NCBI GenBank assembly: GCA_018304385.1 | Contig: JAGVWJ010000010.1 | Location: forward strand, 1 to 32,350 | DNA length: 32,350 nucleotides | Source: Candidatus Micrarchaeota archaeon | GTDB taxonomy: Archaea; Micrarchaeota; Micrarchaeia; Anstonellales; Bilamarchaeaceae | Reading direction: 5' to 3' | Shown: positions 5,630 to 32,350 of the stretch, piece by piece | Numbering within the stretch: position 1 is the stretch's first letter | How the letters are laid out: each line of letters opens with the position of its first letter | Translations under genes and position numbers: made by a program | Notes under the pieces: model-generated | What the model saw: the letters and a program-made list of their open reading frames with translations, nothing else | The model's database searches: none | Told to the model about the DNA's origin: nothing

Positions 5630-5782
5630 AGCCCCGTCGTCTAGTGGTCTTGTTGTTTAACACCATAAAAGGATGCCAGCCTTTGGAGCTGGATACATCG
5701 GTTCGAATGAACTTTTTTAGGGAAAAAAGTTCACAAAAAACTGCTTCGTTAATGGAAGCATATGAAAATCCGATCGGGGCTA
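5630..5782 (+). tRNA. tRNA-Gln(UUG) with two non-canonical introns: D-loop 5650-5668 (19 nt) and T-loop 59/60 5708-5768 (61 nt)
   Basis: Acceptor stem AGCCCCG/CGGGGCT plus A73. Anticodon arm CCAGC-CTTTGGA-GCTGG. T stem ATCGG/CCGAT. Cutting at the BHB bulges (GTGG/CCAT helix; TTCG/TGAA helix) restores GTCTAGTGGTCAAGGAT and TTCGAAT. Confidence 0.92.
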
Positions 5783-5794
5783 CTTATTTTTTCC

Positions 5795-5836
5795 CTCACA
5801 CAGTAGAGACATGGGGTTCAATTCCTCACGAGCCCA
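5795..5836 (+). pseudogene. Orphan 3' half of a tRNA-Val(CAC)-like gene (anticodon loop to discriminator)
   Basis: Parses as CT-CAC-AC / AGTAG / AGACA / TGGGG-TTCAATT-CCTCA / CGAGCCC-A. I did not find a matching 5' half (GGGCTCG...) in the window. Confidence 0.6.
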
Positions 5837-5865
5837 TTTTTAATTTTATTTGAATAAATCAAGTT

Positions 5866-6908: not shown

Positions 6909-7757
6909 TTATTTCGTTCTATAATCAAACTTTCCTTTGTATCTTTTTATTGCTCTATTAAGTTCCTCTACTTTTTTAGTTGTAAATGCGTTAGCCTCAA
7001 CAATATAATTGTTAAAAGCCGGAGAACCAGTAAAATCAATGTTAGTTGACACATGTCCTGTAGAAAGAGTGACTGCAAGGCCGTGCATTGCTTCCATTGC
7101 CCGCTTCGTACTATCGTCCATACGTTCTGGTATTTTCAAACTTTCAGTCATTCTTTTTTGAAAGTTCCTCACTTTAGCTCCTTCCGTTGGTTTGTCTTTA
7201 GAGGATAATAGATCTGTTATCTGTGTCCTAAGCTGTGTGTCTGAAATTCCATTTTCTCTCGCCGTGTTTCTTGCGGTATATAATAACAGTTCTTCAAGAA
7301 GTACAAGTAACTCATCAAGATCACTAATCAAACTATGAAATATGCTCCACCCGGTTTGACCATTAGAAAAAGTATCTTCTCCATGTTCGTATAAATAAAG
7401 CTGATAATCGCCTGCTTCGATACTTGCCTCTATGAATTTTACTTGTTCCCCAGTTAGATATTCCTTGTATTGCATAATTTCTCTAAGTGACTCAATTGCT
7501 CTTTCCATCTCAGGTCTAAAATAATTTGCATTCGTAAACATTCTTGAATATTTAAAACAGTTTTCGTGTAAATCAATCGATGCTTTAAGTAGAGTACTAA
7601 GGAACTTTGCCCTTTTCTCTTTTACTGTTTCCTCGACCTTCTCAATTTTTTGCTCTTTTTTAGTTGTTTCTTCTTTCAAAACACCGAATGCTCTAGCGAA
7701 TGTCGGAACATGTCTCTTAATTCCGGTTTGATTTTTATCAACCAGTAACAATTTCAT
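6909..7757 (-). CDS. Hypothetical helical protein; shares N-terminal leader with 6446..6898
   Basis: Long ORF. The GTG at 7766 lies in the AAGGTGG RBS, so the ATG at 7757 is the preferred start. Confidence 0.75.
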   Translation of the reverse strand: MKLLLVDKNQTGIKRHVPTFARAFGVLKEETTKKEQKIEKVEETVKEKRAKFLSTLLKASIDLHENCFKYSRMFTNANYFRPEMERAIESLREIMQYKEYLTGEQVKFIEASIEAGDYQLYLYEHGEDTFSNGQTGWSIFHSLISDLDELLVLLEELLLYTARNTARENGISDTQLRTQITDLLSSKDKPTEGAKVRNFQKRMTESLKIPERMDDSTKRAMEAMHGLAVTLSTGHVSTNIDFTGSPAFNNYIVEANAFTTKKVEELNRAIKRYKGKFDYRTK

Positions 7758-7927
7758 TTTAACCACCTTATTTAATCTTCTCTAACACTAACGGCGATTC
7801 TTATATATTTTAATATTTCTAACAAAAATTTCAACAAAATTAGAAAGATTTATATACTTTTTCTTATTATGTAGTATACCTCCTCGGATAAAAGAGGCAA
7901 GGGAACCCAGTTATCCTCCCCTCCCCT

Positions 7928-7960
7928 TGAAGCTTTTAGGAAAAGCTTCACCAAAACTGC
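7928..7960 (+). repeat. Family A hairpin element, intergenic copy
   Basis: TGAAGCTTTT-AGG-AAAAGCTTCA perfect 10-bp stem followed by CCAAAACTGC. Matches the copies at 5708, 22561, 24197 and 31966. Confidence 0.8.
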
Positions 7961-22389: not shown

Positions 22390-22559
22390 TGCAGGGGACA
22401 GGATTGACAGCCTTGTTGTCAAATCTTGTGCGACAGCACAAGGCTTTTGAACCTGTGTAGGTACTAAACCACGGAGTCCTAAGCCCCGCGCATTTGGCCG
22501 CTTCAGCCACGTTCCGGTCGGTTTTTTTGTCGCCCGTCACGAGTCTCTGCCACCCCTGC
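22390..22559 (-). tRNA. tRNA-Leu(UAG) with D-loop intron (~22501-22544, 44 nt) and T-loop 59/60 intron (22404-22445, 42 nt)
   Basis: Acceptor stem GCAGGGG/CCCCTGC plus A73. Anticodon arm CGGGG-CTTAGGA-CTCCG. Long variable arm. T stem ACAGG/CCTGT. Both splice motifs are relaxed, so the junctions could shift by 1-2 nt. Confidence 0.88.
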
Positions 22560-22560
22560 T

Positions 22561-22653
22561 TGAAACCCTTTTAGAACGCGGATGTCGCCAAAGGCGACAT
22601 AGCGCCCATTGTTCGATGCGTCGAACAATCGGGAAAGGGTTTCATCCCAAAAC
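22561..22653 (+). repeat. Family A element with two extra hairpins nested in its loop
   Basis: TGAAACCCTTT...AAAGGGTTTCA-TCCCAAAAC encloses ATGTCGCC-AAA-GGCGACAT and ATTGTTCGA-TGCG-TCGAACAAT. Confidence 0.72.
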
Positions 22654-24142: not shown

Positions 24143-24282
24143 GGGCCCGTAGCTCAGCCAGGTTGGAGCGTTCGTGCAAAAGCGACGAAACTGATAGAAA
24201 CTTTAGTAAAAGTTTCATCAAAACTGGCACCTTAAGGTTTTCAGAGATCGAAAGGTCTTGTGTTCAAATCACAACGGGCCCA
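24143..24282 (+). tRNA. tRNA-Ile(GAU) with introns at 30/31 (24175-24189, 15 nt) and 37/38 (24197-24246, 50 nt)
   Basis: Acceptor stem GGGCCCG/CGGGCCC plus A73. The spliced arm reads TTCGA-CTGATAA-TCGAA. BHB helices CGTT/GACG and CTGA/TCAG each have two 3-nt bulges. Confidence 0.92.
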
Positions 24283-31965: not shown

Positions 31966-31999
31966 TCAAACTTTCGGGTTGCCAAAGTTTGATCAAAAC
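31966..31999 (+). repeat. Family A hairpin element, intergenic copy
   Basis: TCAAACTTT-CGGGTTGCC-AAAGTTTGA-TCAAAAC. Confidence 0.68.
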
Positions 32000-32030: not shown

Positions 32031-32350
32031 ATGTTTGATGATATTATTCAAGCTGCGAAACAAAATAACCAAACTGATTCTGTAGAACAAAAAGTAGTTG
32101 AACCTGTTGATGAATTTGATTCATCTAACGTTCGCATAAATGTAATTGGCGTGGGCGGAGCAGGCTGTAATTCTGTTGATAGGTTAATGCGACAGGGTAT
32201 AAAGAGTGCGAGAACAGTTGCAATAAATACAGATGGCAAACATCTAAAATTTGCAAATGCCCATAAGAAAATTTTGATTGGTAAAACAATAACACGAGGC
32301 TTAGGCGCAGGCGGATATATGGATGTTGCCAAAAAATGCGCAGAATTAGA
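32031..32350 (+). CDS. ftsZ: Second FtsZ paralogue, N-terminal part (runs off window; not in ORF track)
   Basis: Translated by hand: MFDDIIQAAK...RINVIGVGGAGCNSVDRL...AINTDGKHL...[35 protein letters not shown]. Confidence 0.95.
   Translation, partial: MFDDIIQAAKQNNQTDSVEQKVVEPVDEFDSSNVRINVIGVGGAGCNSVDRLMRQGIKSARTVAINTDGKHLKFANAHKKILIGKTITRGLGAGGYMDVAKKCAEL

Follow-up and report, generated by a model that had tools for sequence, protein, structure and literature searches.

In the genome of a Candidatus Micrarchaeota archaeon, a short cassette consisting of a hairpin and a C/A-rich tail (33–45 bases) recurs approximately 35 times within 1.53 Mb. The cassette forms a lineage-specific family with a patchy distribution in Micrarchaeota. 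On balance, these cassettes are probably building blocks of protein-spliced (bulge–helix–bulge, BHB) introns that spread at the DNA level, with no involvement of HUH enzymes. The assembly studied (G000; 65 contigs, 36 % G+C, 89 % complete) contains the window, i.e. the whole analysed stretch of 32,350 nt, as contig C26.

Cassette anatomy and distribution of the family

Each cassette is built of two or three flanking bases, a hairpin of 8–11 bp with a loop of 3–4 nt, and a tail in which C residues are followed by A residues; the stem interior is formed by a T-run opposite an A-run. Five copies are present in the window, all at the positions given by the original prediction, with perfectly paired T-run/A-run stems and C–A tails (Table 1). 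Their loops read AGG, AGGG or AGTA, except for the 9-nt loop at 31966, which is shared with a copy in an insert of the 16S gene, while their tails comprise one to three C or T bases, then A4–A6 and a final C. The two host introns that had been named, in the T-loop of tRNA-Gln and at position 37/38 of tRNA-Ile, agree with the hand-read exons. The copies described as intergenic do lie outside introns, although those at 7928 and 31966 are more precisely placed in gene leaders downstream of TATA-like boxes, and the expanded copy at 22561 is not plainly intergenic, being antisense to a minus-strand tRNA gene and directly abutting its 5′ end.

Table 1. Cassette copies in the window and the tRNA genes that host or adjoin them (E, covariance-model E-value)
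Feature	Position	Strand	Structure	Setting
tRNA-Gln(UUG)	5630–5782	+	D-loop intron and T-loop intron; exons hand-read	hosts copy 1
Cassette copy 1	5708–5741	+	hairpin 5708–5733, 11 bp, loop AGGG; tail 5734–5741, C-A6-C; E=4.6e-4	5′ end of tRNA-Gln T-loop intron; second hairpin downstream at 5743–5759
Cassette copy 2	7928–7957	+	hairpin 7928–7950, 10-bp stem, loop AGG; tail 7951–7957, CC-A4-C; E=4.9e-7	leader between TATA-like box (7849) and start of Lrp/AsnC-type gene (8060)
Intron-containing tRNA, long-arm Leu/Ser type	22390–22559	−	acceptor GCAGGGG/CCCCTGC; hand-read	
Expanded cassette	22561–22653	+	arms 22561–22571 and 22634–22644 pair (11 bp); tail 22645–22653, TCCC-A4-C	
Nested module	22572–22633		62 nt, two hairpins	loop of expanded cassette
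tRNA-Ile(GAU)	24143–24282	+	15-nt intron at 30/31 and 37/38 intron; hand-read, compared with three relatives	
Cassette copy 3	24197–24224	+	hairpin 24197–24216, 8 bp, loop AGTA; tail 24217–24224; E=0.004	5′ end of canonical 37/38 intron of tRNA-Ile
Cassette copy 4	31966–31999	+	9-bp stem, 9-nt loop; tail 31993–31999; E=0.0026	leader between TATA-like box (about 31933) and ATG at 32032

A covariance model (CM) built from 28 copies yielded 32 matches in G000 at E<0.02, with the best E-values down to 2e-7, as would be expected of a real family. In a search of 40 relatives, the model matched 33 and 26 times in two genomes of the same genus (G001 and G002, respectively) and 59 times in a genome from another genus of the same taxonomic family (G004), while the remaining 36 relatives gave 0–5 matches. 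No match at E≤0.01 was obtained in 29 of the 40 relatives, which are of similar size, and most members of the taxonomic family contain no cassette copies. When one genome from each of 185,579 species was scanned for the exact pattern, 114 stretches were obtained; nearly all of the matches listed come from MAGs named Candidatus Micrarchaeota, Micrarchaeia or Bilamarchaeaceae, and the few bacterial ones are to be expected by chance. None of the Rfam 15 families matches the cassettes, whether in the window or at 29 cassette loci (gathering score or E≤1), and no published description of the cassette was found in the literature.

In a genome of 36 % G+C, hairpins of this kind might be attributed to chance in AT-rich DNA, and indeed a loose hairpin-plus-A-run descriptor yields hundreds of matches (519, mostly spurious), for which reason the CM was used instead. 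The controls for chance were the CM E-values and the cassette-free relatives. The chance explanation is refuted by the low E-values, calculated per genome, by the 29 relatives without a match, by stem covariation well above that of shuffled and slid controls, and by an enrichment of copies at tRNA genes that exceeds 100-fold. The family recovered by the model, together with its placement, bears out the view that a dispersed, non-coding, structured mini-element is common to tRNA introns and non-intron DNA.

Stem covariation and the mirror relation of the tail

Among 112 copies from three genomes, 91 % of the stem cells are paired, and changes on both sides of the stem occur in 212 cells compared to 75 in shuffles. 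The covariation score reaches 0.498, in comparison to 0.145 for shuffled stems and at most 0.09 with slid partners. The stems therefore vary in sequence yet stay paired, as had been noticed in the five copies of the window.

The tail follows the stem. The A-run has the same length in the 3′ arm and in the tail in 73 of 88 unique copies (permutation mean 43, although the copies are related to each other and permutation tests overstate their independence), and a 4-nt spacer between the two A-runs (an even-length gap) fits 77 of the 88. At the first mirror position, G in the arm is accompanied by C in the tail (74/77), while at the second T corresponds to T (21/22), C to C (12/14) and G to C (25/26). 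The relation can be followed at single loci. In the T-loop intron of tRNA-Gln, the arm has A6 followed by G and the tail C followed by A6, while the G002 orthologue has A4 followed by GG in the arm and CCC followed by A4 in the tail; in the leader copy at 7928, a G–C to A–T change of the stem relative to G004 is coupled to a C to T change in the tail.

Since such a mirror relation cannot be produced by Watson–Crick templating, it fits a fold-back third strand, and the pattern of changes suggests that the tail probably folds back on the stem to form a triplex. Three of the four stem-to-tail rules correspond to canonical triples, while the fourth, C over a G–C pair in antiparallel orientation, is non-canonical. 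As a rule, the 4-nt spacer is made up of stem bases already engaged in pairing, and thus the full hairpin and the fold-back would be mutually exclusive. Intramolecular triple helices are represented by H-DNA at mirror repeats, alternate-strand triplexes and RNA triplexes such as ENE/MALAT1. The cassette resembles them in its mirror-repeat logic (purine-rich arm versus tail) and in its constant short turn, but it offers only 5–7 potential triples and its turn overlaps paired stem bases.

Several other partners of the tail were considered and rejected. Pairing with the T-run and loop in an alternative hairpin would leave the flanking bases mismatched. When the tail and the 5′ flank are read as the central helix of a BHB motif, the bulge falls on the wrong strand in the sense RNA; the antisense RNA has the right handedness but would imply exons that do not fit. 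Pairing of the tail with a downstream GTTTTG holds for only about seven copies.

A second hairpin family was also noted in G000 (C20:87348, C51:14541, C33 about 8118, C55 about 2780 and C20 about 26450). It sits in T-loop introns, and its C4-T3-C-T3 arm pairs with A3-G-A3-G4, while C5-A3-G-A2, located 12 nt later, mirrors the purine arm; here the inner G corresponds to G, unlike in the cassette family described above.

Placement at interrupted genes and the splicing context

The placement of cassettes was annotated by hand at 39 listed sites, with 170 nt read on each side and with exon edges and sense or antisense orientation called by hand. Neither ARAGORN nor Rfam found a tRNA in the window, introns being the cause. 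In the whole of G000, only four tRNAs pass the Rfam threshold, indicating that nearly all tRNA genes are interrupted, and searching 29 cassette loci by E-value gave just three tRNA pieces. By hand annotation, 28 of the 39 sites are in or against tRNA genes, 17 in sense and 11 in antisense orientation. All sense copies lie within tRNA introns, as do nine of the antisense copies, while the other two, among them the expanded copy at 22561, immediately precede a tRNA 5′ end. The affected positions include D-loop, 37/38, variable-region and T-loop sites. One further cassette starts a 102-nt insert in the 16S gene, as defined relative to the Rfam model, and another is internal to the 23S gene (4783 nt, compared to a model of 2987 positions). 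Approximately seven to nine of the listed sites fall within leaders or between protein genes; they occur in both orientations, and splicing is not known at such places. The two or three weakest of these leader or intergenic matches are probably due to chance.

The 16S insert (gene C3:29610-30251) is at about model position 423, and the 23S gene (C21:7217-11999) exceeds the Rfam model by about 1.8 kb; both rRNA genes thus carry several inserts or introns.

The polarity of the cassette with respect to the exon is strict. In all 28 tRNA-associated copies, as annotated by hand, the tail-less end of the hairpin is 0–3 nt from the exon edge. Sense copies are found at the 5′ ends of introns, whereas antisense copies occupy the 3′ end of an intron or the 5′ end of a tRNA; in G002 and G004, antisense copies likewise abut tRNA 5′ ends. 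Orientation relative to the host gene therefore varies across the genome, contrary to the shared orientation initially assumed. The idea that introns serve as a safe harbour for a passenger element is not consistent with a hairpin that in 28 of 28 cases stands where the splicing enzyme needs a helix. The cassette is not a REP/MITE passenger in introns; more probably, it forms the helix that adjoins the cleavage site.

The tRNA copies (28), together with those in the 16S and 23S genes, correspond to gene sequence that the mature tRNA or rRNA lacks, as is characteristic of a component of BHB introns. BHB folding was modelled for the Gln, Ile and antisense cases. For the T-arm and intron of tRNA-Gln, RNAfold predicts a three-way junction composed of the T-stem, a 3-nt bulge, a short UUC/GAA helix of 3–4 bp, a second bulge and the cassette hairpin. 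In the Ile intron, a CUGA/UCAG central helix with bulges can be read by hand but is absent from the minimum-energy fold given by RNAfold. Antisense introns can refold such that the A-run pairs with a T-run at the opposite intron end, and they fit the relaxed motif only. Taken together, these three cases suggest that the hairpin would take the position held by the intron-side helix in a relaxed BHB motif.

A candidate enzyme is encoded in G000, in which one ORF of 416 aa contains two splicing-endonuclease domains and a further ORF of 167 aa contains one; these ORFs fit the three-unit enzyme described for ARMAN-2 (PMC3239211). The tRNAs of ARMAN-2 are heavily interrupted at non-canonical sites such as 59/60, with relaxed BHB motifs (PMC3239211). 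ARMAN-2 (Candidatus Micrarchaeum) belongs to the same phylum as the organism studied here and shares with it the non-canonical interruption of tRNAs and, by prediction, relaxed BHB motifs, next to which stands the two-domain ORF. The enzyme and the intron positions are set out in that paper, and term searches of it found no shared hairpin-plus-tail cassette and no antisense or non-intron copies (PMC3239211).

In the favoured explanation, the hairpin beside the splice-site bulge would provide the intron-side helix for a broad-specificity, three-unit (epsilon2-type) splicing endonuclease. A sense cassette would serve the 5′ splice site, an antisense cassette would serve the 3′ splice site or the tRNA 5′ end, and the tail would lead from the hairpin into the following intron helix. 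A replacement of RNase P by the endonuclease at tRNA 5′ ends is not argued, as an RNase P RNA candidate is present in G000 (a sub-threshold but significant match in an Rfam search).

The leader of copy 2 has a feature of its own. Approximately 80 nt (7850–7927, from the TATA-like box to the 7928 hairpin) are 78 % identical between this genus and G004 (contig C41; L061:1501-1620), exceeding the flanking coding DNA (about 70 %), and the stretch ends in a CCUCCCCUCCCC tract adjoining the hairpin. At the C58:205 copy, the complementary GGGGAGG followed by ATG is found on the other strand. The conserved stretch may represent a small RNA, or else a leader carrying an anti-Shine–Dalgarno-like tract.

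Copying, turnover and probable mode of spread

Similarity between unrelated loci is confined to 30–45 nt and has a sharp edge at the base of the hairpin. Within these limits, identity between unrelated loci is often 97–100 %, and cassettes in unrelated tRNAs are 93–100 % identical, while orthologous coding DNA of the same genus is only 67–78 % identical. The 23S copy matches the 7928 copy at 32 of 32 positions, and a sense copy in tRNA-Ala matches an antisense copy in another tRNA at 33 of 33. Such identity could have been maintained by gene conversion or selection rather than reflecting recent movement.

Comparison of orthologous tRNA introns (Ile and Gln), which had been proposed as a check, revealed presence or absence of the cassette as well as turnover of stem and tail. 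In the Ile 37/38 intron, G000 has a cassette, G001 and G002 have unrelated sequence, and G004 has a head-to-head doublet with a nested insert. In G001, the orthologue of the gene downstream of the 31966 cassette has a short, cassette-free leader, and the leader copy at 7928 is found at the same place in G004, a different genus. At the tRNA adjoining 22561, G002 has a different, uninterrupted cassette on the exon side and, beyond it, the remnant of an older tail; within this tRNA gene, a stretch of 62 nt is 100 % identical in G002. Turnover at orthologous sites is thus evident.

A non-mobile motif recognized by a protein or RNA (for processing, stability or localization), kept by selection and homogenized by gene conversion, would account for the leader copy whose position is kept between two genera with compensatory changes, for the conservation of loop and tail with three-way covariation, and for the occurrence in mRNA leaders as well as stable RNAs. 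Such a motif seems improbable to us, since cassettes come and go at orthologous sites and are lacking in most members of the taxonomic family, since nested insertions occur, and since the polarity of the cassette (loop AGG, one-sided tail) is fixed on the DNA strand, so that 11 of the 28 tRNA copies would show the complement.

The arrangement of copies suggests building blocks that are combined within introns. In G004, two tRNAs have a D-loop intron made up entirely of a doublet of about 85 nt, which runs hairpin, tail, small stem, inverted tail, hairpin; the two introns are roughly 96 % identical by eye. A third tRNA has a T-loop intron in which the same two hairpins flank a central segment that differs. 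In G000, one intron on contig C3 holds a head-to-head cassette pair. Opposite halves of one palindromic unit are kept in two D-loop introns, one on contig C38 of G000 and the other in a tRNA of G002. Cassettes may also be interrupted, as the module nested at 22572–22633 recurs, reversed, inside another hairpin of cassette type on contig C50. These doublets, which form whole introns, and the nested inserts (at 22572–22633 and in the Ile intron of G004) support the view that the element lengthens tRNA introns. The doublet appears to be the full unit, with many singlets being its decayed halves, and the sequences suggest that new cassettes arrive at the gene boundary. A complete intron would consist of two head-to-head cassettes, their hairpins at the two intron ends and their tails directed towards the middle.

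Further repeats and remnants were observed near these loci. The nested module is a second repeat with two GC-rich hairpins (G000 C50, about 2770–2840), its host stems differ between the two loci, and part of it is found in a tRNA intron on C15 (about 7330–7370). The 15-nt Ile 30/31 intron of the window (24173–24187) resembles a deletion remnant of a 39-nt G001 intron at the same site, in which a degenerate cassette-like hairpin and a C-A5-C tail are retained. Right after tRNA-Gln, positions 5793–5850 (+) contain only the 3′ part of a Val-like tRNA, from the CAC anticodon loop onward with T-arm and acceptor; at the same place, the Val-like gene of G002 is complete and carries antisense cassettes at two points, in the D-loop intron and at the 5′ end. 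When G000 was searched with a simple pattern for a matching 5′ half, as in a split tRNA, none was found.

The doublets could also be taken as evidence of mobility at the RNA level, in which whole cassette-built introns, above all doublets, would move by reversed endonuclease and ligase splicing at BHB-like sites and become fixed in DNA through reverse transcription and recombination, a route already proposed for transposed introns, leaving single sense and antisense cassettes as decayed doublet halves. The doublet intron in three tRNA genes of G004 keeps one orientation relative to the tRNA, the decay of a palindromic doublet explains why sense copies are at the 5′ and antisense copies at the 3′ ends of introns, and G000 encodes an RT-domain ORF of 242 aa (C2:18553-18969, −; E=1.9e-13). 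However, the RT domain is found in 12 of 41 genomes, with similar short ORFs in 11 of the 40 relatives, and does not track the number of cassettes; it is missing from the cassette-rich G001 (33 copies) and G004 (59 copies) and present in four cassette-free genomes. A link to RT, as judged by copy number in the 41 genomes, was therefore rejected. Antisense cassettes outside introns, at tRNA 5′ ends and before protein genes, also argue against the RNA route, as does the sharing of only the 30–45 nt cassette, not the whole intron, between unrelated loci. We regard RNA-level movement as rather unlikely.

A different route would be that of REP/REPIN- or IS200/IS605-type elements, moved as single-stranded DNA by an HUH (Y1) transposase and surviving in introns that are spliced out. 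Bacterial REP/REPIN (RAYT) elements are short palindromes scattered over the genome; they have a conserved flanking motif and covarying stems, inverted doublets being the likely unit and singlets its remnants. The cassette is similar to them in all these aspects of anatomy, as well as in its dispersal. The original prediction of a REP/MITE-like element driven by HUH enzymes nevertheless finds no counterpart in the gene content, in which no Y1 HUH gene (PF01797) is found in the four cassette-rich genomes G000, G001, G002 and G004 (75–92 % complete) and no TnpB domain in G000, the one genome searched for it, while the same Y1 search detected 3–4 genes in G012, which has only five cassettes. No HUH/RAYT gene was found, and the cassettes number tens and not hundreds; instead of being extragenic, most copies are inside RNA genes and adjoin splice junctions, with the hairpin abutting the exon edge, which is not the behaviour of random passengers. 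A mobilizing enzyme was not identified, and no target-site duplications or flanking direct repeats were seen by eye around the copies. Movement by an HUH transposase is accordingly very improbable.

Spread of intron building blocks at the DNA level thus remains the preferred reading, and we infer that cassettes would have been copied between tRNA, rRNA and leader sites by a process that probably acts on DNA and involves no HUH transposase. The closest precedent is provided by Thermoproteales, in which near-identical introns occur across tRNA types and positions together with a broad-specificity endonuclease, and spread is presumed to take place at the DNA level (Fujishima et al. 2010, as summarized in PMC4090602 and 10.64898/2026.10.13.758758). 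The 'transposition' of these introns is described without a known mechanism (PMC4090602), and a 2026 preprint on Asgard introns tested several routes of arrival and left the question open (10.64898/2026.10.13.758758). The Micrarchaeota cassettes share with transposed introns of the Thermoproteales type the near-identity of sequence across tRNA types and positions (93–100 % between unrelated tRNAs, and the doublet of about 85 nt in G004), the broad-specificity endonuclease and the presumed DNA-level spread. They differ in host phylum and in that the unit is 30–45 nt and not a whole intron, occurs in both orientations with fixed polarity to the exon and a tail mirroring the stem, and extends to rRNA inserts, tRNA 5′ ends and mRNA leaders.

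As a tentative extension, the cassette may be a vehicle of archaeal intron gain, i.e. a hairpin/triplex module, protein-free or driven by host enzymes, that would insert at RNA-gene boundaries in either orientation and create a BHB site by placing its own helix beside a bulge. If this were the case, the origin of non-canonical tRNA and rRNA introns would become directly testable.

The cassette is a short, well-defined unit with recognizable sequence and structure, fixed splice-site polarity, nested and doublet forms, and gain and loss between relatives. As copies are present both inside and outside introns, the birth, growth and decay of introns can be traced at base resolution, and the cassettes offer simple substrates to test recognition by the epsilon2 endonuclease. 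The stem–tail mirror rule is unusual in itself and may mark a natural triple-helix motif. In Micrarchaeota, the cassette looks like a copy-and-paste building block of introns, and it provides a lead on how archaeal introns arise.
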